In this document: piece after piece, positions 15,344 through 48,422 of the stretch
Layout of the letters: each line of letters starts with the position of its first letter
How positions within the stretch are numbered: the stretch's first letter is position 1
DNA from: Candidatus Micrarchaeia archaeon
GTDB taxonomy: Archaea; Micrarchaeota; Micrarchaeia; CAILAH01
Assembly (NCBI GenBank): GCA_038740245.1
Contig: JAVYLZ010000003.1
Span: forward strand, 1-48,422
Direction: 5' to 3'
Length of the DNA: 48,422 bases
Translations under genes and position numbers: made by a program
Notes under the pieces: generated by a model
Seen by the model: the letters and a program-made list of their open reading frames with translations, nothing else
Database searches by the model: none
What the model was told of the DNA's origin: nothing

Positions 15344-15840
15344 TGTTTCACCACGTAAATCCCGTCCTGGAACACGCGCTCATCCTTGCCCCTGACGCGT
15401 GTCGCCTGCCGCAGGTTGGCGGCGGTCTGGCCCACTGCATACACATCCGGGCCCTCTATCTCTATATCCTGGCCCTTGACCGTAACCTTGGTCGGGCCGA
15501 CTATTTCAGCGTGAAGGTCACGCTTGCCGCCCAGGAAATTCTTTATGGTCATGGTGCTGCCCTTGACCTCCACCTTCATGGGGAAATGCGCAAACACCAT
15601 CCGCATGGTTTTCCTGTGGCCCTCGGTAACACCTTTGAACGCATTGCTGAGGTGGGCGACTGCGGTGCCGACAAGCATCTTGCTCCCGGAAAGCACAACC
15701 TCATTGCCCGAGATGCCCGCTGAAAGCTTCCTAGGGACGCCCACACTGACCTCGCCCTTTGGGCCCTTTACCTTGATAATATCGCCCGCACGGGAAACTG
15801 AAACGCCCGCAGGCACAACTAATTTCTCTTCCATCAGCAT
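15340..15840 (-). CDS. rpl6: 50S ribosomal protein L6 (uL6)
   Basis: The sequence is ..VSRAGDIIKVKGPKGEVSV...GHRKTMRMVFAHFPMKVEVKG.., and the operon position fits. Confidence 0.9.
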   Translation of the reverse strand: MLMEEKLVVPAGVSVSRAGDIIKVKGPKGEVSVGVPRKLSAGISGNEVVLSGSKMLVGTAVAHLSNAFKGVTEGHRKTMRMVFAHFPMKVEVKGSTMTIKNFLGGKRDLHAEIVGPTKVTVKGQDIEIEGPDVYAVGQTAANLRQATRVRGKDERVFQDGIYVVKQ

Positions 15841-15846
15841 CACCAG

Positions 15847-16230
15847 CTAATATATGTATGCGATAAGCCTGCCGCCAAGGTTTCTTTGCCTTGCCTCGTG
15901 ATTGGTCATCAGGCCCTCGGATGTTGATACTATGAGCAGGCCGAAATCCTTGCTGAGCACATACCTCTGCTCCCACTTGACCCACTCGTCAGCGGACACT
16001 GAAAAGCGCGGCTTTATCACACCACACTCATTTATCGGCCCGATACCGTACACTATAAGCTCATCACCACGGCCGTCAACCTTATGCTCAAACGACTTGA
16101 TGTAGCCGTTGTCCTTGAGTATCTGCATCACACCAAGCAGCAGCTTTGATACCGGCTTTATCCGGCAGTTGCGCATGCCAACGCGCTTGTGCGTTTTTAT
16201 GACATTAAGACCCTGAGCTAGAATGTCCAT
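15847..16230 (-). CDS. rps8: 30S ribosomal protein S8 (uS8)
   Basis: The sequence is DILAQGLNVIKTHKRVG...MQILKDNGYIKSFE....GLLIVSTSEGLMTNHEARQRNLGGRLIAYIY. Confidence 0.9.
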   Translation of the reverse strand: MDILAQGLNVIKTHKRVGMRNCRIKPVSKLLLGVMQILKDNGYIKSFEHKVDGRGDELIVYGIGPINECGVIKPRFSVSADEWVKWEQRYVLSKDFGLLIVSTSEGLMTNHEARQRNLGGRLIAYIY

Positions 16231-16240
16231 GTGCACACCC

Positions 16241-16411
16241 CTAATATTTCCTGAACCCTATCTGCTCGCCGTAATCACGAAGGCATCTCCTGCATATGTT
16301 CAAGCGGTACTTGCGGATGAGCCCACGCGCGGTCCCGCAAAACCTGCACTTGCGTGTGCCCTTGCCCTTGAACTTTGATAAGTATTTCCTCTCCTCTTTC
16401 TCGTTCACCAT
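16241..16411 (-). CDS. rps14: 30S ribosomal protein S14 (uS14, zinc type)
   Basis: The sequence is ..KGKGTRKCRFCGTARGLIRKYRLNICRRCLRDYGEQIGFRKY. ATG 16411 lies right after the L5 stop. Confidence 0.85.
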   Translation of the reverse strand: MVNEKEERKYLSKFKGKGTRKCRFCGTARGLIRKYRLNICRRCLRDYGEQIGFRKY

Positions 16412-16412
16412 C

Positions 16413-16934
16413 TCACCCTTCCGCCTCTGATTCACCAAGAACCGTTACGCCCATCTGCGAAACGAACTGCTGCGCCTCCTCCTTGGTTATGAGGTGCTTC
16501 TTGCCTATCTTGGAAAAGCCAATCTTCTTGCGCGCAACCCTGTACCCGGGCCGCACAAGCGATACGCATACATCAAACCCGAGCATGCCGATCTTCGGGT
16601 CATACTTGACGCCCGGGAAGTCAATATACTCCTTCACGCCGAATGAGAAATTGCCGCGCGTGTCAAAAGAGCTCTGGCGTATTTTGTTGCCTACCGCCTC
16701 AAACGCCTTCTTAAGGAAATCGCGCGCCTTCTGGCCGCGAAGCGTGGCCATGGTCCCGATAGGAAGGCCCCTGCGCAGGCCCCATGTGGGGTTCCTGCTC
16801 CTGGACTTTGTCTGTATGGCCTTGGTGCCGGTAAGCCTCTCAAGGAACGCCTGTGCATTCTCAAGCGGCTCGCCCGCCTTGCCAACGCCTATGTTAACCA
16901 CGACTTTATCAATGCGAATATCCCTCATCGGCAT
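16413..16934 (-). CDS. rpl5: 50S ribosomal protein L5 (uL5)
   Basis: The sequence is MRDIRIDKVVVNIGVGKAGE...TKSRSRNPTWGLRRGLPIG..TLRG. Confidence 0.9.
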   Translation of the reverse strand: MPMRDIRIDKVVVNIGVGKAGEPLENAQAFLERLTGTKAIQTKSRSRNPTWGLRRGLPIGTMATLRGQKARDFLKKAFEAVGNKIRQSSFDTRGNFSFGVKEYIDFPGVKYDPKIGMLGFDVCVSLVRPGYRVARKKIGFSKIGKKHLITKEEAQQFVSQMGVTVLGESEAEG

Positions 16935-16936
16935 AG

Positions 16937-17626
16937 CTATTCTCCCCCTTCAACAAATATGTAGTCCTTGTATATGACGAACTTCTGGCCGCTGTCGGTC
17001 TCAATTGAAACCTTGGCACGCGCGTTTGGTGTGCCAGGTATCATTGATGTTATCTTGCCGTGCTCGCCGGCATGCTTGCCTTTAAGCACAACACAGCGTG
17101 AGCCCACCTCCAACGGGTAGTGGGAAATGACCTTGAACTCCGGCAGCGAGAGCTTCAGCGTATCACCAACGGAATACTTGGCATCTGAAAGCAGTGTCCT
17201 GCCGTCAGCAAGCGAAATCTGCTGCTTGCCACCCCTCACCGTCCTTTTCCCTACGATGCGGAGCAGCTTGTGCTTCACGTTCGCCCTCTTGGCGACCAGC
17301 CGCCCCTTCGCATCAAGCTCCATCCTGTAAGTCATATCAACATCAGGGATATGTATGACATCCATAAACCCGATTGGGAAATTCGGGTCCTTTACCACAC
17401 GCCCGTCCACGAGCACCTTGCCGTGCTTTACAAGTATCTTCGCCTCGCGTGCTGTGCCAGCAACCTTGAGCAGGTCCCTCAAAAATGAAAGCAGGGTTAT
17501 GCTCTCGCGTGCGGTATGCGTGCCCGCCCTGGGCTTTGCGAACCACACGTGGTCCTTGCGCGGAAGCGAAATCTTGCTTGTCGCATTCAAGCGCTTAAGG
17601 GTTGTTTCACGACCATGTTTTGCCAT
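16937..17626 (-). CDS. rps4e: 30S ribosomal protein S4e
   Basis: The sequence is KHGRETTLKRLNA...LPRKDHVWFAKPRAGTH....AKILVKHGKVLVDGRVVKDPNFPIGFMDVI. Confidence 0.9.
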   Translation of the reverse strand: MAKHGRETTLKRLNATSKISLPRKDHVWFAKPRAGTHTARESITLLSFLRDLLKVAGTAREAKILVKHGKVLVDGRVVKDPNFPIGFMDVIHIPDVDMTYRMELDAKGRLVAKRANVKHKLLRIVGKRTVRGGKQQISLADGRTLLSDAKYSVGDTLKLSLPEFKVISHYPLEVGSRCVVLKGKHAGEHGKITSMIPGTPNARAKVSIETDSGQKFVIYKDYIFVEGGE

Positions 17627-17640
17627 AAGTACACACCATT

Positions 17641-17991
17641 TTATTGCGATTGTGCCTGCTTTGCCGGCTTCTCAGCCTCAAGCCGGGTAATCATGACATT
17701 TGACGAGTCTATAAAGAGCGGCAGCTCCTTGCCATCCGCCTTCTTCACTGAAAGGCCCTCAATGGAAATCTTTCGCTTCTTAAGGTCAACCGACGTAACC
17801 TTGCCCTCCTTGCCCCTATTCTCGCCGCGGAGCACCTTCACTGAATACCCCTTCCTCACGCGCATAGTGCGCTTGCCAACCACTTTCCTGAGCTCTTTGG
17901 AAAGGTGCGCCGAAACCATATCCTGCCTCCTGTGCAGGGGCGCCCTTGCAAATGCCTTGCGCTGGCTCTTGCGTTTTCCCTTCTTCTTCAT
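17641..17991 (-). CDS. rpl24: 50S ribosomal protein L24 (uL24)
   Basis: The KOW motif is MRVRKGYSVKVLRGENRGKEGKVTSVDLKKRKISIEG. Confidence 0.9.
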   Translation of the reverse strand: MKKKGKRKSQRKAFARAPLHRRQDMVSAHLSKELRKVVGKRTMRVRKGYSVKVLRGENRGKEGKVTSVDLKKRKISIEGLSVKKADGKELPLFIDSSNVMITRLEAEKPAKQAQSQ

Positions 17992-18390
17992 CTAAACCAC
18001 CGCCAGCGCAATCGCCGCAACCTTCGGGAAGCGCTCTGCAACCTCGCGTGCGATTGCCCCCTTAATCTCACTGCCCTTGGGCAGCTTGTTATCGTCAACA
18101 AGCACCGCCGCGTTGTCCTCAAACATTACGCGGACGCCGTTCGCGCGCTTGAACTCCTTTCTCTGGCGGATTATCACCGCCTTCTCTATCTTCTTGCGTA
18201 TCTTGGGCGCGCCTTTCCTGACCGACACTATCATAGTGTCGCATATGCCGCCGCAGGGATACTTGTTCTTGGTGCCGCGGTACCCTGCCATCCCGATTAT
18301 CATAAGCTCCTTTGCGCCGCTGTTGTCATCGCAAAACAGAGTTGCGCCAACCGGCAGCGGCCTTGTTATGCTTGATGTTAATGCTCTCAT
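17992..18390 (-). CDS. rpl14: 50S ribosomal protein L14 (uL14)
   Basis: The sequence is ..LPVGATLFCDDNSGAKELMIIG..GY.G......GGICDTMIVSVRKG. ATG 18390 lies after the S17 stop. Confidence 0.9.
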   Translation of the reverse strand: MRALTSSITRPLPVGATLFCDDNSGAKELMIIGMAGYRGTKNKYPCGGICDTMIVSVRKGAPKIRKKIEKAVIIRQRKEFKRANGVRVMFEDNAAVLVDDNKLPKGSEIKGAIAREVAERFPKVAAIALAVV

Positions 18391-18400
18391 CGCATACCAC

Positions 18401-18685
18401 CTACTGCTTGCCAATCACTACCCAGTGCTTGGTCTTGCTGAGCCTCCTGCACTGCTTCAGCCGCACAACATCGCCAACCTGCACCGAAATGCATTCAGGC
18501 AGGTGCGCATGAAGCTTTGAGCGGTTCTTGGTATACCGCTCGTACTTGTGGCTGTAAAGAAGGTATTCACGCTCAACAACCACCGTTTTCTTGGCTTTGT
18601 TGCTCACAACCGTGCCCGTAACCTCAAGCCCGTGAGTGCTCAGCGTGCCGTGCATCGGGCATTTTGAATCGCTACATTCAGGCAT
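18401..18685 (-). CDS. rps17: 30S ribosomal protein S17 (uS17)
   Basis: The sequence is CSDSKCPMHGTLSTHGLEVTGTVVSNKAKKTVVVEREYLLYSHKYERY..R.SKLHAH. It is the first gene of the cluster present here. Confidence 0.9.
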   Translation of the reverse strand: MPECSDSKCPMHGTLSTHGLEVTGTVVSNKAKKTVVVEREYLLYSHKYERYTKNRSKLHAHLPECISVQVGDVVRLKQCRRLSKTKHWVVIGKQ

Positions 18686-18846
18686 AATTTCACCATCGCA
18701 AGCTCGCCCGGCGGTCTAGCTATAGATTTTGTTAATAGCTTTAGAAGTTAGCCGAGCGGCGTGCTATTTTAAACATAGTTAGTTATATAAACCTGCGCCG
18801 CAATTACGAGGGAGGCGGGCATAAGTATTTAAACCACTGCCCCCAC

Positions 18847-19923
18847 CTACAGCCATCTCCTGCGCCTGAAGTAAAGCACCATCAGCGCTGCAACGAGCAG
18901 CATCAGCAGCAGGACTGCTGGGTAGCCCCACTCGCTCTCAAGCTCGGGCATATACCTGAAATTCATGCCGTACACGCCGGCTATGAACGTAAGGGGTATG
19001 AAAACCGTTGATATGATGGTGAGCACCTTCATTATCTCATTGAGCCTGTTGCTTATGCCGGACAGGTGGACGTCAACCATCTCTGAAAGTATGTCGCGCA
19101 TTGACTCCACCATATCCATAACCTGTATTGTGTGGTCATACGCATCCTTAAGGTATATGCGCGTGCGCTCCTTTATAAGCGGCGATTCGCTGCGCTCAAG
19201 CGCGGAAAGCACCTCACGCAGCGGCCAGACCGACCTCCGCACCAGCAGCACCTCATGCTTGAGCCGGTTTATCTCATGCAGCTCCGCAGGGGACGGGTTG
19301 GCAAGTATCCTCGCCTCAAGCGTATCCACGCGCTCGCCAAGCCGCTCTAGCACGGTGAAATAGTTATCAACGATGGCGTCTATGAGCGAATACGCAAGGT
19401 AATCGGTGCCCATCTTGCGTATCTGGCCGGTGCCGCTGCGTATCCTCTCGCGGACACCGTCAAACACATCGCTCTTGCCCTCGCTTTCCTGAAATGTTAT
19501 CAGGCAGTCGCCGCGCAGTATCATGCTGACCTGCTCCTGCCGGACCTGCGCAGCCACCTCATCGTAGGTGAGCATGTTGAGGACTATGTATATGTATCCG
19601 CCCAAATCCTCATACTTTGGGCGCTGCCCCGTATGCGCAATGTCCTCAAGTATAAGCGGATGTATATCGTAATGCCTCCCTATTTCCTCTATTATGGAGA
19701 TATCATGAACCCCGTCCACGTTGATCCAAGAAGTTGTCGGCGTCCCCTTGAGCGCAAAGCATTCGCTAACTTCCTTTGCGACCTTCTCCGAGAAGGATTT
19801 TTCATCATAATCTATTACGGTAATCCATGTTTTTGCGGACTTCTTGTCACCAACATAAACAATAGTGCCAGGCGGGAGGCCTGCCTTGCCGCTGCGGCGG
19901 CCCACAACCCGTGATACGCCCAT
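18847..19923 (-). CDS. corA: Magnesium/cobalt transporter CorA
   Basis: The C-terminus has two TM segments with the YGMNF signature (FIAGVYGMNFRYMPELE). Confidence 0.9.
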   Translation of the reverse strand: MGVSRVVGRRSGKAGLPPGTIVYVGDKKSAKTWITVIDYDEKSFSEKVAKEVSECFALKGTPTTSWINVDGVHDISIIEEIGRHYDIHPLILEDIAHTGQRPKYEDLGGYIYIVLNMLTYDEVAAQVRQEQVSMILRGDCLITFQESEGKSDVFDGVRERIRSGTGQIRKMGTDYLAYSLIDAIVDNYFTVLERLGERVDTLEARILANPSPAELHEINRLKHEVLLVRRSVWPLREVLSALERSESPLIKERTRIYLKDAYDHTIQVMDMVESMRDILSEMVDVHLSGISNRLNEIMKVLTIISTVFIPLTFIAGVYGMNFRYMPELESEWGYPAVLLLMLLVAALMVLYFRRRRWL

Positions 19924-24470: not shown

Positions 24471-25988
24471 CTACAGGAATGCTTCCACATCCTCTTTTTT
24501 GCGTGCCTGCTCCAGCTCATACTTCTTGGCAAGTGATTCCAGATCCACGGTATCAATGCTTATGTCCGCATTGCGCTTGCGCACGCGCACGAATATTGGC
24601 TGCACCACCGCCTCGCCGACAATAAGCGCTTCGCCAACCTTGAGCGTGGTTATGCTGTTGAGCATGTAGTTGTCTATGCCCTCACTGCTCTCACCGATGT
24701 GCTTTATGTCGTAGGGGTTTGTTACGCGCATTATAATGTGCGTGTTGCACTGCGACAGCGCGGTGGTGCTCAGGCGGACCGGCCTCTGCGAGATAAGGCA
24801 CAGCGATGCGCCAAACTTGCGCCCCTCACGGGCGATGCGCTCAAGCTCGTGCTTGGAAAGCATATCCTCGCGCTTAACGCTTTCAGCAGCAAAATTGTGG
24901 GCCTCCTCCACAACAAGCACAAATGGCGGTACCTTGCCCTTCTTAACCGCATTGAACAGCCTGCGCGCATAATACGCAACAAGCATCTGCTTCTTTTTCT
25001 CGCCGTCAATATCGCGCATGTTTATAACACTGATATGGCCCGGCTTGACAAGCGATGCTATTGACGGGTCGTCCACCTTCCCAAAAACGCGCATCTTCTG
25101 AAGCGCATCAAGGTGGTCAAGCAGTGCATCACGCGGCTTTGCGGCGCCCTTATCCTCTATTGAAGTGAGGTCCAGCATAATGTCCTTGGGCGTGAAAAAC
25201 CTGTGCTGCGCCTTTGCCTGCTTCTTCAGCTCATAAAAGGTTGATGCAAGCAGCCGCTTTTGGGTGGTGCTAAGTGAATGGTAAAACGGGAACATGTCCG
25301 GCGTTGCGTTTTTTGTGCCTATGCGTATCTTTGAGGCATCATACACTGTAACCTTGCCGGCAAGCGGGCCGGACTTCAGCATCGCATACTCGCCATGCAC
25401 ATCAATCACAACTACCCCTATACGGCCGTGCTCAGGGCTGCGCGCAGCAAGCTCCTCAAGCAGCACGCCCATAAGGTATGACTTGCCCGCACCCGACATT
25501 GCAAGTATTGCAACGTGCTTCTGGAACAGCTTTGAGAGGCCAAGCTTGACGTCAACATCATGGTTGAGCAGCTTGCCTATGTTGAGGCCGTTCTCCCTGA
25601 ACCCCAGATATTTGGCGAGCATCTGCTCATCCACCTGGTGGACATCGCTGCCGGGCGGCGGGGGGAACGAGCACCTGTGCAGCACTTTCCCGTCGTAAAC
25701 GCCCAGTATGCGCGTTTCGGCAATCGTATAGCTCCATTCATCTATGGGAAAATGGGAGGAAAGCGCGCCTGAGCGCTCGTACCCGGCAACGCTCTCAGCA
25801 CGCTCAAAATACCTGTTTGAGCGGAATATGTCGCCTATTGAGGCGATAAGCCTGCCGCCTTCGTGCCCAACCTCAACAAACTGGCCCTTCCTGACCCTGC
25901 CCAGTGCATCATCGTTTATCACGAATGCGAACTTACCTGTATTTGGGCTGTCCATCATTGAAATTATGGTGCCAAGCTTGGTAGCCAT
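24471..25988 (-). CDS. HerA-like (DUF87) ATPase of the FtsK/HerA superfamily
   Basis: It has an N-terminal HAS-barrel-like region, Walker A (HVAILAMSGAGKSY) and Walker B (FVLVVEEAHNF), and continues ..LCLISQRP... No NurA gene is adjacent. Confidence 0.8.
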   Translation of the reverse strand: MATKLGTIISMMDSPNTGKFAFVINDDALGRVRKGQFVEVGHEGGRLIASIGDIFRSNRYFERAESVAGYERSGALSSHFPIDEWSYTIAETRILGVYDGKVLHRCSFPPPPGSDVHQVDEQMLAKYLGFRENGLNIGKLLNHDVDVKLGLSKLFQKHVAILAMSGAGKSYLMGVLLEELAARSPEHGRIGVVVIDVHGEYAMLKSGPLAGKVTVYDASKIRIGTKNATPDMFPFYHSLSTTQKRLLASTFYELKKQAKAQHRFFTPKDIMLDLTSIEDKGAAKPRDALLDHLDALQKMRVFGKVDDPSIASLVKPGHISVINMRDIDGEKKKQMLVAYYARRLFNAVKKGKVPPFVLVVEEAHNFAAESVKREDMLSKHELERIAREGRKFGASLCLISQRPVRLSTTALSQCNTHIIMRVTNPYDIKHIGESSEGIDNYMLNSITTLKVGEALIVGEAVVQPIFVRVRKRNADISIDTVDLESLAKKYELEQARKKEDVEAFL

Positions 25989-32552: not shown

Positions 32553-35426
32553 CTAGCCGCAATCATTGCAGGCCATCCCTGCAACATACTTGCAGGCATT
32601 ATTGCAGTGCTCTATCTCATTCCACCCGATTGGCCCCCATACGCACACAATATCGCTGCACGAATCATATAGCGCTGCTGAGCATTCACTGGCGCTTGAC
32701 CCGCTATATGCACCACCCGCAGATGGGCACCACCCAGAAATGCGGTTGTATTCTGTTCCCTCACTTATAATTCCACTTTTTCTCCCAATCTCAAGATAAA
32801 CGTTGCACTGCTGGATAAGGCACTGCGGGCTTATCTGCTTTGGCGGTGCGGCCGCCGCTGGCGGCTCATTGTAAGGGCATCCAGGATCCAGCTCAATCGG
32901 TGAGGAAATAGCAAAAATGGTTTCTTCTGAAGAACCCTTAACGTATCCCTCCCCCATAAGGTATACTGAATCGCCTGCAAGTTGTCTAAGTGCAACATTC
33001 TTGAACGTCTTTGCGTTATTCTCGCACGCCGTGTGCCTCTTGTCGCAGTTTGAATCAAACATGGGCTTTATTTGCATCCAGAATGGATCCTCCACAACAA
33101 ATACTTTTGAAGACAATTCATTGCAAACAACTGACTTGCCTCCTGAACGGCAATTGTAACTTGTGCCTGTGCAGACAGACCCAACATCAAGCGAAAGGCA
33201 TTTTGTTGAGATATTCCCTCCTATCAGATCGCATTTGCTGGAGAGAGCTGCATAACACGAATCTGCATTAGGATACCCAAGAGAAATTGGGTTCAGCCAG
33301 CACGCAATAGTTACGGCTCCAGTGCAGTTATTACGCGTATCCGTTGCGATTGCAATGCACGAGTTGTAGAAGCACTCGTTGAACATCGCTTTTTGCGAGA
33401 ACACTAGCATATTCTCAACATTTGTTGATTCTGAAACAATGACCTTGCCGGTGCACCCTTCCTCGGCGCGCATCTCAAACAGCTTGACGCGCTTATCGCC
33501 TTCACCGAGGTATGAGCACCCTGAATAGTACGTGGACTCTATGGCGGACTTTGAGCCGTATATCAGTGGCTGGCCGCGGTATACCACAAGAGGGGTGTTG
33601 GTGCCTGCAAGTGTGCGCATAATATTTGCAAGATACTTATAGCCAAGCTTCCATCCTTCAGAAGATGAAAGGCCGGCAATGAACGAGTCATATGCTGGGC
33701 GCGTTACATTCCCTTTCAAATATTTCTCAAGCAGAACTTTCTCCTCGGCGCTGAGCTCGGTTTCAGAGTTGATGCATTCGGCCGGGGGCGCAATGCTTAC
33801 CACACGGCACGAGCCGTCTGTGCACACATCCTCCATACATTTGCGGTCCTCCTCATCAACTTTGTTGTCGTCGTTGAAGTCATACCGCTTGTCAAATTGC
33901 TTGAGCGCAAGGAACTGGTCAAACAGCTGCAGGTCATAGCCGTCTATGTAGGTGTCGCCGTTGAGGTCATATGTTGCGCCGTTTGGGTTGCACTGCTTCA
34001 TGCAGTCCAAGCATATCTCAGGAGGGCCCTGCTCAAATATCTGGAGGTCAAGACCGCTTTGCAGGTATTCATTATATTCTTGCGGCACGAAAATGTTCCA
34101 ATTATAACCATCGCTCGTGCACGAATAAAGCAGTTCTCCAAGAGTACATGGTTGCTGCAGCATTATGATTTCATCGCATACGATCTCAATGCATGTGTCA
34201 TCTCCGTTTGAATCCGCAAGATTATCTGACCCAGTACCGCCGCACGTGCCTGAGCCAATTTCCATGCACTTCTCAAGCGGCCCGCACTTTGACGGGTCAG
34301 CCTTGCACTGGGGGGATGCGCACGAGTCATCGCACACGTACCCAGCGGGACACGTGTTGCACATCTGCTTGCAGGAGTATGCGGTCTTTTCTGGGGAAGT
34401 GGGCGTGCACACCGCATCAGGGCAGTTTATCTCAACTGTGCCGTCGCTTATTGTGCAGAGCTGGCCGGCCTGCTCTGCAGTGCATTCCTTATCCACACAG
34501 GATGCGCACGCGCCTGTCTTTGGGTCCTTGCACCCAGTCCCCTCACAGGACTCATCGCATACAAAGCCGGCAGGGCACTTGTTGCATACCTCCTTGCACA
34601 CAAACGCGGACAGTGAAGTGTCTGTGGGAACGCACAGCGTATCAATGCACGGGTAAGAGCCGCCCTTGTCGGATGTTATCTTGCAGTATTCGCCCGCCTG
34701 CCACTGCGCTTTTGTGCACGGCTTGTCCGTGCATACCATACAGCTGCCGTCAGAAAGGCAGCAGCCGTTCGGGCACTGCTCACACACATAAGACCCAGGA
34801 AGACCGCAGGATTGTTTGCAGGTATGCTTTTTCAGTGCAGTGTCATAAACGCACGTTGAGGGTATGAGGCAGCCTACACAGTTGCCGGAAGCATCACATA
34901 CCTCACACGGCTCGCCCGCTTTTTCACAGGGCAGTGACTCGCACGTGAGCGGCTCGCACCTGCCCTTTGAGTTGCATGCATATCCATCACAGCATGAGTT
35001 GACATCGTTGGGGTTGCACAGCATCCCCTTTTCACAGGGCTCGCACTTGGACTCGGCGTTGCAGGAGAACCCGTTACAGCAGGGGCTTGACTCGCTGCAA
35101 GTATCTGGATTTACGCATACGTTCTGCGTGCATTCCGCCGGATTATCTATTTTGCAGCATATCCCTTTTCCCTTGTCAAGGTAATATCCTGCACCACATT
35201 TTAGATAGTCGCAATATTCAACGTAATTCCCCTCTTTGTCCTGCACACAGCAGCCGCACTCGCTTGAGTACCCCGCTGGGCACTGGACCGCCTCAGGCGG
35301 GCAGCCGCTGCCGCCTACACCTTGCAGCATCCATAAAATTGCAAGCGCAATTATCACTAGGAGTATAAGCGCAATCAGGGGCCTGAAATCCGCTGTTCCT
35401 TCCTGGTCGCTTCCCATAAGCATCAA
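32553..35426 (-). CDS. Secreted or anchored hyper-cysteine protein (957 aa) with a dockerin-like Ca-binding repeat pair and a C-terminal globular domain
   Basis: The N-terminal hydrophobic segment is PLIALILLVIIALAILWML. Dense Cys modules run to about aa 545. The sequence DLNGDTYIDGYDLQLF...DFNDDNKVDEEDRKCM resembles a dockerin repeat pair. The start overlaps the upstream stop. Confidence 0.7.
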   Translation of the reverse strand: MMLMGSDQEGTADFRPLIALILLVIIALAILWMLQGVGGSGCPPEAVQCPAGYSSECGCCVQDKEGNYVEYCDYLKCGAGYYLDKGKGICCKIDNPAECTQNVCVNPDTCSESSPCCNGFSCNAESKCEPCEKGMLCNPNDVNSCCDGYACNSKGRCEPLTCESLPCEKAGEPCEVCDASGNCVGCLIPSTCVYDTALKKHTCKQSCGLPGSYVCEQCPNGCCLSDGSCMVCTDKPCTKAQWQAGEYCKITSDKGGSYPCIDTLCVPTDTSLSAFVCKEVCNKCPAGFVCDESCEGTGCKDPKTGACASCVDKECTAEQAGQLCTISDGTVEINCPDAVCTPTSPEKTAYSCKQMCNTCPAGYVCDDSCASPQCKADPSKCGPLEKCMEIGSGTCGGTGSDNLADSNGDDTCIEIVCDEIIMLQQPCTLGELLYSCTSDGYNWNIFVPQEYNEYLQSGLDLQIFEQGPPEICLDCMKQCNPNGATYDLNGDTYIDGYDLQLFDQFLALKQFDKRYDFNDDNKVDEEDRKCMEDVCTDGSCRVVSIAPPAECINSETELSAEEKVLLEKYLKGNVTRPAYDSFIAGLSSSEGWKLGYKYLANIMRTLAGTNTPLVVYRGQPLIYGSKSAIESTYYSGCSYLGEGDKRVKLFEMRAEEGCTGKVIVSESTNVENMLVFSQKAMFNECFYNSCIAIATDTRNNCTGAVTIACWLNPISLGYPNADSCYAALSSKCDLIGGNISTKCLSLDVGSVCTGTSYNCRSGGKSVVCNELSSKVFVVEDPFWMQIKPMFDSNCDKRHTACENNAKTFKNVALRQLAGDSVYLMGEGYVKGSSEETIFAISSPIELDPGCPYNEPPAAAAPPKQISPQCLIQQCNVYLEIGRKSGIISEGTEYNRISGWCPSAGGAYSGSSASECSAALYDSCSDIVCVWGPIGWNEIEHCNNACKYVAGMACNDCG

Positions 35427-37087
35427 CCTACCACTATCTCCTTCGGCGCTGTAAAGCAGTTATTAATCTTATTTAGGAGACAAAACTTTTCCAGCTTAGT
35501 GCAGAAATTCCCCCCTACTTCTTCCTTATAATTTGAGACAATATATTCATACGGAGATATCATTGAGGTATCCACCCCAAAAACCGAGCCGTCCTTCTTA
35601 TAGAAAGTATACTTGTGATTATTCGGCCCGAGCTTTTCATACTGTGCACGCAAGCATACATAAGTCAGTAAAGTAGTTCCCTTAGTGACGTAAGCATAGC
35701 CGGACTTGCATATATCCGGGGGCACTTGGAGAGCACCTGCAGGCAAACCGTCATTAGGCACTATGTAAATGCAGCATTTTGATGGGTCCTTGGTGCACGC
35801 AAACGTCCCCCATTCGCACATAAGGTTCGGCGGTGCATGGCAGAACTCCTTTTTACCGGAGGGCGTGTCAAACACCATGCACGAATCGCCCACCATTGGC
35901 GCACCGGTGCATCCCTGCGGGCACTTGAACGTGTTTGGTGGGCATACGCTTACCGTCTGCGTGCCGTATGTGCAGCACGTGCACCCCTGCACTGTTTTGC
36001 ATGGATGGCCGCCTTCACCGCACGCACACTGCCCTGTGAACGCATCACAGCACCCTGTCGGGCATTCAGCAGTGTCGCAGGCGACCTGCCCCTCCGAGCA
36101 GCCGCCCTTCGGCTTGCACACAAACTCGTTTGCTGACTTGTCCTTTGCCGCGCATACCGTATTGTCGGTGCACTTTGAGCACTTATCGCTCCCAGTAGAG
36201 CAGAGCTCGCACGGCTCACCGGGGTTTGTACAGGGAGCGCCTTCACAGTTGCCAGTATATTCACAGCTACCCATTACACACACGCCGCCCGCACAGCACT
36301 CAGAATCCTTTGAGCATGATTTTTCACAGGACTCACATACCTTCTTCTCAAAATTGCAAGCGTAGCCGTTGCAGCATGGGTTATTTTCATCACAGTACGC
36401 GCCTTCCTTGCAGCCGGCACACTTGCCGTTCACGCACTGGAACCCGTCGCACGCGCACATCTGGCCCTGTAAAGGATTGCACGATGCAACGCAGTTCTTG
36501 CACGAGCCGGAGATGCACGCCCAGCCGTCACAGCAAGCACCGGGCTCACCTGGGTTGCAGGCCTTCTCACATGAAGTGCACTTGCCAAGATAGCATTCAT
36601 ATCCGCTGCAGCAGTCCTTAGCGGCGGTCTCAAGCATGCACGGCTTTGCCTCACACGCAGCGCACTTACCGTTAAAGCAGCTCATCCCGGAGCAGCAAGG
36701 GTTCTGCTCATCGCAATATGCGCCCTGCTCGCACCCCTTGCAGTCGCCGCCCTCGCATTTGCTGCCCGCACAGCAGTCGGAATCAGATTTGCAGGGCTCA
36801 ACTGCCACACATACAGCTGGACCTGATGCACAATCCTGCGGGTTTGACAGCGAGCAGCATTTGCCGTCCATGACCGCATACCCGCTGCACGATTTGCATA
36901 TATCAACGGAGCCGTCCGCGTTCTGGACACAGCAGCCGCACGGGCTGTCCGCACACGCATACGAGCCCTCAGGGCACTGTGCGCTGCTTGATGCACACAA
37001 CGCCTGCACTATCAATAACGCAAGCACGCCCGCACCAAGCAGTGCAAGCAGTTTCAGGCCGTTGTCATCCTCATCGCCAAGAGCCAT
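35423..37087 (-). CDS. Secreted hyper-cysteine protein (554 aa) with tandem knottin-like modules; paralog of the 957-aa protein
   Basis: The signal-like N-terminus is LKLLALLGAGVLALLIVQALCASSSAQ. I hand-counted about 86 Cys. There are at least seven tandem modules of the form C-x5-8-CC-x-G-x2-C-x2-3-G-x-C. Confidence 0.7.
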   Translation of the reverse strand: MALGDEDDNGLKLLALLGAGVLALLIVQALCASSSAQCPEGSYACADSPCGCCVQNADGSVDICKSCSGYAVMDGKCCSLSNPQDCASGPAVCVAVEPCKSDSDCCAGSKCEGGDCKGCEQGAYCDEQNPCCSGMSCFNGKCAACEAKPCMLETAAKDCCSGYECYLGKCTSCEKACNPGEPGACCDGWACISGSCKNCVASCNPLQGQMCACDGFQCVNGKCAGCKEGAYCDENNPCCNGYACNFEKKVCESCEKSCSKDSECCAGGVCVMGSCEYTGNCEGAPCTNPGEPCELCSTGSDKCSKCTDNTVCAAKDKSANEFVCKPKGGCSEGQVACDTAECPTGCCDAFTGQCACGEGGHPCKTVQGCTCCTYGTQTVSVCPPNTFKCPQGCTGAPMVGDSCMVFDTPSGKKEFCHAPPNLMCEWGTFACTKDPSKCCIYIVPNDGLPAGALQVPPDICKSGYAYVTKGTTLLTYVCLRAQYEKLGPNNHKYTFYKKDGSVFGVDTSMISPYEYIVSNYKEEVGGNFCTKLEKFCLLNKINNCFTAPKEIVVG

Positions 37088-46159: not shown

Positions 46160-47005
46160 TTACACATTCCCCACACTAACTAATTCCATGCTAATGCTTT
46201 TATTCGTGCCGTCATCGGCAGTTCCACTGGCATCCATGCGGAAAAGAATGGGTATATCGCTGCCAACCCATGCCTCCATCGTGCCGCTCCTGTATACCTT
46301 CACCGCATACTTCTTGCCGCCAAGAGCCACAGCATCATCACGGACAAACGCGCTTTCGCTTGCGAGCTCGCTGCACACAAACCATATGGGATAGGAATTG
46401 CATTGTGCGCGCTTAGTGTCGCCATAGGGAAAAGAATACTCAACCTGCACGCATTTTCCGTCAAGGCCATACGTATACCTCGCATTTGTGGATATCTTCT
46501 CACCGTTATATATAGCCCGCGTGCTCACTGAATGCACTGCCGTTGTGCCGTAATACCCCTGAAACGTGCTCTGCGTGTAAATGGGTGTGCCGTCATAGAT
46601 TATCCTGTAGGTAGTGTCAAGGGACAGCAAGCGCACCGGATCGCCGAGAGGGGTGCACGAATAGTTGTATGAAGGGGGGCCCTGCTCTGTTTGGTTGCCC
46701 TGCAAAAAGCCTCCTCCCAGGCCGACAATCTGGGGAAGCGTGCCGTTTGGCTGGTATGCCGGGAGATTGCTTAACTTATCAGTGGCGGCAGTTGCAGCTG
46801 TCTCAATAAAATCAATTTTTGGGGATGGCTGCGGGAGAATGTAGTTAAGGGCGATAACCACAATGAATAGGATTGCAATCGCCAGGGCGAGATTTTTGGC
46901 CTGCGGTGCAGAACTTTGCGGGGCACTGGTGTGGCCGGCAATTGCACGCGCGACCCAATATGCATCACGTGCCTTTCCAATGTGTCCCTTGCCAATATCC
47001 TTCAT
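46160..47005 (-). CDS. Bitopic membrane protein with an N-terminal TM anchor and a beta-rich extracellular domain
   Basis: The TM segment is LALAIAILFIVVIALNYIL. The stop abuts the start of the giant gene with 0-nt spacing. The start is ATG 47005; TTG 47017 is an alternative. Confidence 0.55.
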   Translation of the reverse strand: MKDIGKGHIGKARDAYWVARAIAGHTSAPQSSAPQAKNLALAIAILFIVVIALNYILPQPSPKIDFIETAATAATDKLSNLPAYQPNGTLPQIVGLGGGFLQGNQTEQGPPSYNYSCTPLGDPVRLLSLDTTYRIIYDGTPIYTQSTFQGYYGTTAVHSVSTRAIYNGEKISTNARYTYGLDGKCVQVEYSFPYGDTKRAQCNSYPIWFVCSELASESAFVRDDAVALGGKKYAVKVYRSGTMEAWVGSDIPILFRMDASGTADDGTNKSISMELVSVGNV

Positions 47006-47020
47006 CAAAGCCACCAACCG

Positions 47021-48133
47021 CTATATTACGCGCACCATCCCGCGGCCTATGTCCGCAATGTTGCCCCCAAGTATCTGCGTTAGCGAGCGCGCAAACAGGA
47101 ACGTGCCAACCATCGCAACAAACGGGTAGAAATATGCATACAGCCGTATACGGCCGGCAGTATCCTGTGAGAACCCGCCAACATCGCTGGAGATGAGCTT
47201 GCCGTAGCCGCTTGAGCCTGCTGGCTTATTGCCCTGCGACTCCTCAATCAAGGATTCAATTGCCGTGGGGTCCGCAGGGCACATCTTCTTGCCCTCTTTA
47301 ACTGTTTCCTCCTCTTCCTCAACAATTTCAACGGCAACCGAGCACTTGTCCGGAAGCGGGGGAGCATTCACGAACAGCACTGTAAGCAGGAACGGGTATA
47401 CAAAATAAAGCGAGATCGCAATGCCCATAATCGCTGCACCGCCCCCGCGCGTGTACGGGAATGCGCGGAGCAGAATTCCAAGTGGTAGATATACGGTAAC
47501 CATTGACGCCTCAATCCACTGCAGGAAATTAATCTGGAAATAGGCGGCAAGCGAAAGCCACAGTATTTCTTCTGCATCCATTATGGCAACCATAAGCTTT
47601 CCCCAAGCGTCGGTTGCAAGATCAAGTATTACGGGGATTGGCAACGGTACTAATGCACCCATCACATTGAGACTTACGCCCATACGCGGTATCATCTCAT
47701 AAGCCTGCAGCTTAAGCAGCCGGTTATATTCGGACTTGAGGCATTTCAGCGAGCTCAGCAGGTAAACGTATGAGACATCAAATATGTTTACTTGGTAACC
47801 GGTCTTGCCAAGTATCTGCTCTGCTGCTGCACCGCCTATCATATCCCTGAAATCCTTGTTGCCTGCGATTATGAAAGATTCTGTTGTTGCAAAGGCCATA
47901 AGAAATGTTATGAGAAGCACCGTGGCCGCCAGCTGGAAGAACTCGCGTCTTACAGCCATCTCAAGAGTGCGCGAGCTGAATATCTTTGATGCCATATAGA
48001 GTATTATGAGCATGAAGGCGATTATCATTACCACTGACATTGCTATACCATACCACTCAAGTGGCATGTTCTGGGCCAATACCTGTGCAGAAGTTTCCCA
48101 TGGCGAAAGTGCAACATCTATGCTCGTCATCAT
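47021..48133 (-). CDS. Polytopic integral membrane protein of 370 aa with about 7 or more TM segments
   Basis: It has multiple long hydrophobic segments and an acidic loop (EIVEEEEETVKEGKK). Its start overlaps the upstream stop (ATGA). No family was recognised from sequence alone. Confidence 0.6.
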   Translation of the reverse strand: MMTSIDVALSPWETSAQVLAQNMPLEWYGIAMSVVMIIAFMLIILYMASKIFSSRTLEMAVRREFFQLAATVLLITFLMAFATTESFIIAGNKDFRDMIGGAAAEQILGKTGYQVNIFDVSYVYLLSSLKCLKSEYNRLLKLQAYEMIPRMGVSLNVMGALVPLPIPVILDLATDAWGKLMVAIMDAEEILWLSLAAYFQINFLQWIEASMVTVYLPLGILLRAFPYTRGGGAAIMGIAISLYFVYPFLLTVLFVNAPPLPDKCSVAVEIVEEEEETVKEGKKMCPADPTAIESLIEESQGNKPAGSSGYGKLISSDVGGFSQDTAGRIRLYAYFYPFVAMVGTFLFARSLTQILGGNIADIGRGMVRVI

Positions 48134-48422
48134 ATCGCCCTCATTATGCCGGAGATGTCAATCTCAGAGCCAAGCGTGCCGGCCAGACTGCGCACCAGCG
48201 CCGCGGTTATAAGCACCTGCAGTGCGGGTATGAAGAACACAAGCAGCATCACCGAGCCGTAGGCATTGTAAACATCAATGAAATACTCATTAATGCTTGC
48301 AGTATCCATGCCTGAGGACAGCCCTAGTGCTGTGAGCCCTAATAAACCACTAACACCTGATACTATAAGACCTGTAACACTTGCCATTCCGGCTAGGGCG
48401 CCTGCAAACATCACTGCAAGCA
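48130..48422 (-). CDS. Small two-TM hairpin membrane protein; possibly truncated by the window edge
   Basis: The first hydrophobic helix is GALAGMASVTGLIVSGVSGLLGLTALGL, followed by a polar loop and the second helix SVMLLVFFIPALQVLITAALV. The frame stays open upstream to the window end. Confidence 0.5.
   Translation of the reverse strand, partial: LAVMFAGALAGMASVTGLIVSGVSGLLGLTALGLSSGMDTASINEYFIDVYNAYGSVMLLVFFIPALQVLITAALVRSLAGTLGSEIDISGIMRAI

Follow-up and report, generated by a model that had tools for sequence, protein, structure and literature searches.

The 48,422-nucleotide stretch of DNA analysed here (the window) comprises positions 1–48422 of contig C3 (JAVYLZ010000003.1; 55,362 nt) in the genome assembly of Candidatus Micrarchaeia archaeon (GCA_038740245.1; 688 kb, 41 contigs, 81 % complete), designated G000. 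Labels beginning with G and C denote sampled Micrarchaeota genomes and their contigs, and L-labels the loci compared; G000 is the genome analysed. Three co-directional open reading frames (ORFs) occupy the minus strand at 46160–48422. In a first-pass annotation they were read, from topology and gene order, as a trio resembling VirB2, VirB6 and VirB8 of the type IV secretion systems (T4SSs) at the head of an operon. All three ORFs were found in place with roughly the topologies described, the 370-aa protein being polytopic and the third protein having one N-terminal transmembrane (TM) segment and a beta-rich C-terminal domain. The end of the window coincides with a scaffold gap of 10 N (contig C3 48423–48432). 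Upstream of it on contig C3 four further paralogues of the membrane protein were found on the same strand, up to position 54059; the three ORFs are therefore not the operon head, and the apparent trio is a product of the window boundary. Coordinates are collected in Table 1.

The six-gene membrane protein array

In transcription order, the array consists of p1 (434 aa, containing a run of N), p2 (314 aa), p3 (487 aa), p4 (352 aa), p5 (270 aa, the gap and 96 aa) and p6 (370 aa). The window contains p6 and the end of p5, the stop codon of p5 overlapping the start of p6 (ATGA). A second 10-N gap (contig C3 53588–53597) lies within p1, the sequence of which is thus also incomplete in the assembly. 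Directly upstream of p1, a divergent ORF of more than 429 aa (contig C3 54076–55362, plus strand) continues past the contig end; it combines a signal or TM segment with an N-terminal part of Ig-like appearance, a second TM segment and a long low-complexity tail rich in Lys, Glu and Thr.

The ORF at the window end, with two hydrophobic helices, had been taken as a protein of about 94 aa for a pilin of the VirB2/TrbC/CedA1 type. Its reading frame resumes across the scaffold gap as a 270-aa N-terminal piece, and on the unbroken contig of a close relative (L047) a single gene covers both pieces: residues 83–270 of the N-terminal piece are 83 % identical to L047 residues 1–188, and the 96-aa piece is 84 % identical to residues 190–285. 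Because the two alignments leave so short an interval in L047, about one or two codons of p5 are concealed by the gap. The orthologue at the same array position in genome G030 is likewise uninterrupted (380 aa), with 44 % identity to the N-terminal piece (E = 1e-63), 49 % identity to the last 47 residues of the 96-aa piece (E = 6e-15) and an identical DISGIMRAI end. No Pfam family, TrbC (PF04956) and T4SS_pilin (PF18895) included, was matched by the 96-aa piece at E ≤ 1. These comparisons make the ORF the C-terminal quarter of p5, a protein of ~370 aa; there is no small two-helix protein at this place, and the pilin assignment falls. For annotation in general, ORFs at window or scaffold edges can mimic small pilin-type proteins.

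According to its topology and an AlphaFold2 (AF2) model, p6 has about five hydrophobic or TM helices, with a region of 60–140 aa between TM2 and TM3 that provides the extracytoplasmic loop of a VirB6/TrbL-type topology. p6 bears a near-invariant P-x-G-x-x-x-R-x-x-P-x-T-R-x-x-G motif and has the C-terminus G-G-(N/D)-x-x-D-x-G-R-G-x-x-(R/K)-x-I. All six paralogues have in common a TM hairpin at the N-terminus with the signature I-x-Y-M-x-x-K-x-F...E, a central helix of the form P-x-G-x-L-L-R-A-F-P-x-T-R-x-x-G-G and a C-terminus that reads G-x-(D/E)-x-D...R-x-I. Charged or polar residues are conserved in or near the hydrophobic helices (E64, R223, T228, R229).

A profile search of the contigs of G000 returned only the family members of this one array. 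By an exhaustive profile search, 2221 cluster representatives were collected at E ≤ 1e-3; those with names were all hypothetical proteins of Micrarchaeota, to which the family appears to be specific. It was present in 111 of the 121 genomes of the phylum sampled (1–17 matches each, mostly 5–17), and the ten genomes lacking it are spread over five families of the phylum.

Exactly six genes were counted in each of the eight arrays examined. In a maximum-likelihood tree of 48 proteins the genes grouped by array position and not by genome: the p5 genes formed a single clade (support 96/97), and p2 and p6 formed one clade each, save for one long-branch genome. Position labels required 10 changes on this tree, against a mean of 31.8 after shuffling, and a value as low was reached in 0 of 200 shuffles. 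Since the genes cluster by array position, the six-fold duplication is old; the paralogues diverged anciently, whole arrays being copied as units afterwards.

Pilin and ATPase genes in this genome and its relatives

Upstream of 48422, where an ATPase or a coupling protein of the locus might have been encoded, contig C3 carries the paralogues, and no ATPase belonging to the array operon was found in the extended locus on this contig. A stand-alone HerA-like ATPase gene lies ~6.5 kb from the operon end; it was rejected as the motor, as housekeeping genes intervene (GT2 glycosyltransferase, TFIIE, SRP54 and Na/H antiporter). Neither of its neighbours was recognised as NurA-like: one is a 135-aa S-adenosylmethionine (AdoMet) decarboxylase gene, the other a 211-aa ORF without Pfam match.

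The genuine VirB2-like pilin and VirB4-like ATPase of G000 were assigned, from profile matches and topology, to a cluster on contig C8 and not to the locus. The ATPase matched the Pfam families AAA_10 (1.5e-15), DUF87 (1.3e-12) and P-loop_TraG (2.6e-12), and by tblastn it matched 2324 plasmid records, 2101 of them typed conjugative; the best matches listed were nearly all TraC, the VirB4 of F-type systems. When the pilin was scanned together with nine homologues, PF18895 (T4SS_pilin) was matched by seven of the ten (best 1.3e-6) and TrbC/VirB2 by five (best 3.1e-5), scores that individually lie mostly under the curated cut-offs; the best match of the pilin profile in the PDB was TrwL, the pilin of R388, with an E of 0.06 that is not significant. 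Contig C8 thus encodes both an ATPase of the VirB4/HerA clade and a VirB2-like two-helix pilin, as expected of a Ced/Ted-type system.

Two paralogous 2-TM proteins precede the ATPase. They gave no significant match to PDB, Pfam, R388 VirB4 or VirB8, and from their position may carry the functions of VirB3 and of the VirB4 N-terminal domain. Downstream of the cluster lie genes for a 253-aa coiled-coil/winged helix-turn-helix (wHTH)-like protein and for an anchored one exceeding 680 aa; upstream of it, in the opposite orientation, are genes for two large surface proteins, one of 1219 and one of 930 aa.

The genomes with strong matches to the ATPase (53–88 % identity) were precisely the 111 carrying the membrane family, and in the ten without it the match was absent or weak (1e-14 to 1e-16). 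In G103 and G006 all components form one operon, which runs from two pilin genes through the six paralogues and the pair of 2-TM proteins to the VirB4-like ATPase. Gene order in G090 agrees with this, several pilin genes being present there; its array too has six genes. In G047 a protein of 705 aa separates the six paralogues from two 2-TM proteins, after which comes the ATPase. Three families of the phylum show the array between pilin and VirB4-like ATPase. The ATPase ORF of G006 (L039, G006:C2, 6488–9637) measures 1050 aa, about twice the usual length, which suggests a fusion with another domain.

Minimal systems, placed among housekeeping genes, were found as a second system in two genomes. 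One paralogue, one 2-TM protein and an ATPase paralogue are encoded in G087 (L038, G087:C1, 6499–9671), and the same set, with a pilin-like gene directly upstream, in G059 (L037, G059:C20:7051–11279). These systems may look like the arrangement that preceded the six-fold duplication.

G030 and G043, which belong to the window's own family, have two arrays, with the pilin/2-TM/ATPase cluster set apart. One array is ordered as in the window, its six paralogues being followed by protein A, the giant protein and a pair of Cys-rich proteins; the second (L040, G030:C3:34000–54000; L043, G043:C30) has no surface-protein genes beside it and is absent from the 81 %-complete assembly of G000. In G030 the second array has an aminoacyl-tRNA synthetase-like ORF on one side and is followed on the other by two FtsZ genes.

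The 370-aa protein p6 had been described as VirB6/TrbL/CedA-like. VirB6, CedA or TedA is the polytopic membrane partner of pilin and ATPase in T4SS-like systems (PMC9905601, PMC11868833). Like inner-membrane VirB6 (VirB6/TrbL, PF04610; R388 TrwI), p6 is polytopic and of similar size (370 vs 342 aa), and in Micrarchaeota relatives its operon also encodes a VirB2-like pilin and a VirB4-like ATPase; unlike it, the family shows no detectable similarity to VirB6 by Pfam, PDB sequences, Foldseek or hhalign. No Pfam match, to transporter families or any other, was obtained for p6 and 44 diverse family members, and the family profile found nothing among the PDB sequences at E ≤ 10. The AF2 model of p6 (24-sequence alignment; pLDDT 67, pTM 0.61) gave a best E of 1.8 against the PDB with Foldseek; no VirB6 chain was among the 50 matches listed, the model being only moderate and Foldseek weak on elongated helical membrane proteins. 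Alignment of the family to R388 TrwI/VirB6 (24 sequences) with hhalign gave a probability of 0.7 %, with an alignment so narrow (at least 50 % identity) that very remote homology could escape. The pilin hairpin aligned by hhalign to family residues 33–83 with a probability of 5 %, which is taken as a lead and not as evidence; CedA1 has been reported to be similar to the N-terminus of CedA in the Ced system.

At the locus itself, then, neither similarity to T4SS components nor an ATPase was found, findings that on the terms of the first-pass annotation would have ended the matter; yet in relatives the array stands between the pilin and the VirB4-like ATPase. Because the family is the sole polytopic component between these genes, a role like that of VirB6, CedA or TedA is supported by gene context, and the family is taken to work in place of VirB6/CedA without being shown to be VirB6. 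The functional half of the earlier assignment is thereby retained and the homology half is not.

Were the proteins instead an ordinary family of solute transporters or permeases, their adjacency to the ATPase in some genomes would be due to chance. Polytopic proteins with conserved E64, R223, T228 and R229 in or beside hydrophobic helices would suit this explanation, as would the lack of recognisable T4SS homology. No transporter family was matched in Pfam or the PDB, however, a fixed set of six distinct paralogues is untypical of permeases, and the position with pilin and VirB4-like ATPase recurs in three families and in the single-copy minimal systems; a permease is accordingly regarded as very improbable.

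Table 1. Positions of the genes in the window, on the remainder of contig C3 and on contig C8 of G000.
Feature	Position	Strand	Basis
C-terminal 96 codons of paralogue p5, open at window end	48130–48422	-	ORF list
N-terminal 270 aa of p5, past the gap	contig C3 48433 to ~49244	-	ORF scan, paralogue comparison
Paralogue p6, 370 aa, last of the six-gene array	47021–48133	-	ORF list, paralogy
Protein A, 285 aa if started at TTG, 281 aa at the ATG of 47005	46160–47017	-	ORF list
Giant protein, 3009 aa	37130–46159	-	ORF list
Cys-rich proteins of 554 aa and of 957 aa, operon end	32553–37087	-	follow the giant gene, likewise in L042
Stand-alone HerA-like ATPase (DUF87 1.5e-30)	24471–25988	-	Pfam
T4SS-like core cluster of G000	contig C8 ~15380–19278	+	ORFs, Pfam
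VirB2-like pilin, 113 aa, signal peptide and two hydrophobic helices	C8:15347–15757	+	Pfam, topology
Two paralogous proteins, 2-TM hairpin and ~200-aa soluble domain	C8, before the ATPase	+	ORFs
VirB4-like ATPase, 522 aa	C8:17337–18911	+	Pfam, tblastn
Zn-ribbon membrane protein	C8, core cluster	+	ORFs

Protein A and the giant lipoprotein operon

The AF2 model of protein A has a TM anchor at the N-terminus, from which a disordered linker leads to an all-beta ectodomain with Cys (aa 116–281), the pLDDT of the ectodomain block being mostly 70–90. By Foldseek it was matched to VioE (9.5e-5), ependymin-related protein (9.2e-4) and MucB (3.9e-3), each with probability 1.0 and a sequence identity of 7–11 %. 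The modelled ectodomain shows the LolA-like fold class and not the NTF2-like fold of VirB8. With the LolA-like proteins (VioE, ependymin-related proteins, the N-domain of MucB/RseB) it shares an open all-beta half-barrel of ~165 aa; it differs from them in being membrane-anchored and archaeal, besides the low identity. VirB8 was not matched in Pfam, few homologues were detectable, and in the loci examined recognisable homologues occurred only between a six-gene array and a giant-lipoprotein gene; none was recognised in the pilin-to-ATPase operons examined in relatives. The TM anchor is present as described in the first-pass annotation, and the VirB8-like assignment is given up.

The giant protein downstream has an N-terminal signal peptide with a lipobox-like LAGC, and a Pfam scan of its sequence found nothing relevant. 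Because of this neighbouring lipobox-like sequence, it is a reasonable guess that protein A handles a lipid anchor or another hydrophobic moiety. The array, protein A, the giant protein and the Cys-rich proteins recur as a unit in relatives.

With p5, p6 and protein A identified, the literal trio of a separate VirB2-like pilin, a VirB6-like channel and a VirB8-like protein has become scarcely credible. Topology alone favours it, in the form of a two-helix piece of 96 aa, a polytopic protein of 370 aa and an anchored beta-rich protein. Against this, the 96-aa piece belongs to a paralogue of ~370 aa, a separate pilin being refuted by the uninterrupted L047 orthologue; pilin, VirB6 and VirB8 families were not matched; the fold search placed protein A with LolA-like and not with NTF2-like proteins; and the true pilin is assigned to contig C8.

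The main rival to a T4SS-like function is an autonomous surface-protein module, in which this copy of the array would export, anchor or display the giant proteins independently of the VirB4-like ATPase and the pilin. It would accord with the separation of array and ATPase in G000 and its family, with the conservation of array, protein A and giant gene as a unit of its own, with the second array of that family, which has no surface genes beside it, and with the restriction of recognisable protein A homologues to giant-protein arrays. The operon encodes no energy source, however, the array genes are positional orthologues of genes within pilin/ATPase operons, and every sampled genome with the family also gives a strong ATPase match. 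An autonomous module is therefore judged unlikely, if less so than a permease.

Proposed mechanism and related systems

In the window, p5 (cut by the gap) and p6 of a six-paralogue T4SS-like membrane array are followed by a LolA-like anchored protein and a giant lipoprotein; with fair probability, the array forms a platform driven in trans by the C8 ATPase. The six distinct subunits would join in a single heteromeric platform or channel of the membrane, with energy supplied by the VirB4-like ATPase from contig C8. The platform of this copy may be linked with how the giant lipoprotein and the Cys-rich proteins are displayed or anchored where cells are in contact, protein A perhaps attending to a lipid anchor or other hydrophobic group. 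Because array and pilin/ATPase are separate in G000, their joint function here is inferred from other lineages.

Several findings weigh against such a platform. Array (C3) and pilin/ATPase cluster (C8) are on different contigs in G000, and in G030, from the same family of genomes, the ATPase is ~46 kb from the second array. The co-distribution of family and ATPase may reflect one or a few ancestral events, related genomes not being independent. Homology of the family to VirB6/TrbL was detected by none of the four approaches (Pfam, PDB profile, hhalign, Foldseek). For protein A the TM-scores of the fold matches are low (0.24–0.34 over the whole query), 40 % of the model being disordered.

The closest parallels are the DNA import systems Ced (Sulfolobales) and Ted (Thermoproteales), which are also chromosomal, reduced T4SS-like sets of a VirB2-like pilin, a polytopic protein and a VirB4/HerA-like ATPase without outer-membrane parts (PMC9905601, PMC11868833). 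Their respective components are CedA1/TedC, CedA/CedE/TedA and CedB/CedD/TedB (PMC9905601, PMC11868833). The pilin carries a signal peptide, as does TedC; polytopic paralogues, proposed to form a hetero-oligomer, are known from Ced (CedA, CedE), in which the N-terminal functions of the motor are also distributed over more than one gene (CedB, CedD). The Micrarchaeota system differs in having six fixed paralogues in place of one or two, in the two 2-TM proteins preceding the ATPase, in the detachment of the G000 array from pilin and ATPase and its union with a giant lipoprotein operon, and in its bearer, an obligate episymbiont with a genome of ~0.7–1 Mb.

Multiplication of the protein in the VirB6 position is also seen in the rvh T4SS of Rickettsiales (four to five tandem VirB6 paralogues, some carrying giant extensions), together with a reduced, host-dependent genome and very large extracytoplasmic polypeptides (PMC2653234, PMC7648143). 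There the paralogues are recognisable as VirB6/TrbL and the giant parts are fused to VirB6 (PMC2653234, PMC7648143), whereas the Micrarchaeota family cannot be recognised as such from its sequence, its number is fixed at six, and a separate gene encodes the giant protein. The T4SS of Patescibacteria (candidate phyla radiation, CPR) is likewise chromosomal and VirB4-centred, has VirB2-like pilins and is near-universal in a phylum of ultra-small episymbionts; it lacks a relaxase and has presumably been co-opted for host interaction (PMC12102498). It differs in being bacterial, of the MPF-FATA class and built of recognisable components, with no six-paralogue array (PMC12102498).

Electron cryo-tomography of the micrarchaeon ARM-1 and its host has revealed unidentified intercellular protein nanotubes (outer diameter 6.7 nm, lumen 4.4 nm) and a 21-nm envelope "barrel" (bioRxiv 10.1101/2024.05.20.594898). 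A bolder and decidedly doubtful extension of the proposed platform would make of the six paralogues a pseudo-six-fold ring, a fit for a hexameric VirB4-like motor; with the pilin and the giant Cys-rich lipoproteins, this ring would form the micrarchaeon's side of the host connection (the ARM-1 nanotube and/or the barrel). If this were true, an obligate archaeal symbiont would be fed through a T4SS-derived cell-to-cell conduit.

Like other DPANN archaea, Micrarchaeota rely on touching a host cell physically, and we know of no proteins assigned to making or using this contact. A paper describing the present Micrarchaeota system was not found in the literature, in which Golyshina et al. (2017) offer only speculation on DNA exchange through pili and membrane proteins; the system is apparently an unpublished variant of archaeal T4SS-like machinery. 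As a chromosomal T4SS-related system that is kept in most of the phylum, with its membrane component multiplied to a fixed six, and that in G000 has an array tied to giant Cys-rich surface lipoproteins, it makes a concrete candidate for the contact apparatus, and one that can be put to the test. The system would also extend the theme of Ced and Ted, conjugation machinery taken over for archaeal chromosomal functions, to a third and very different lineage.

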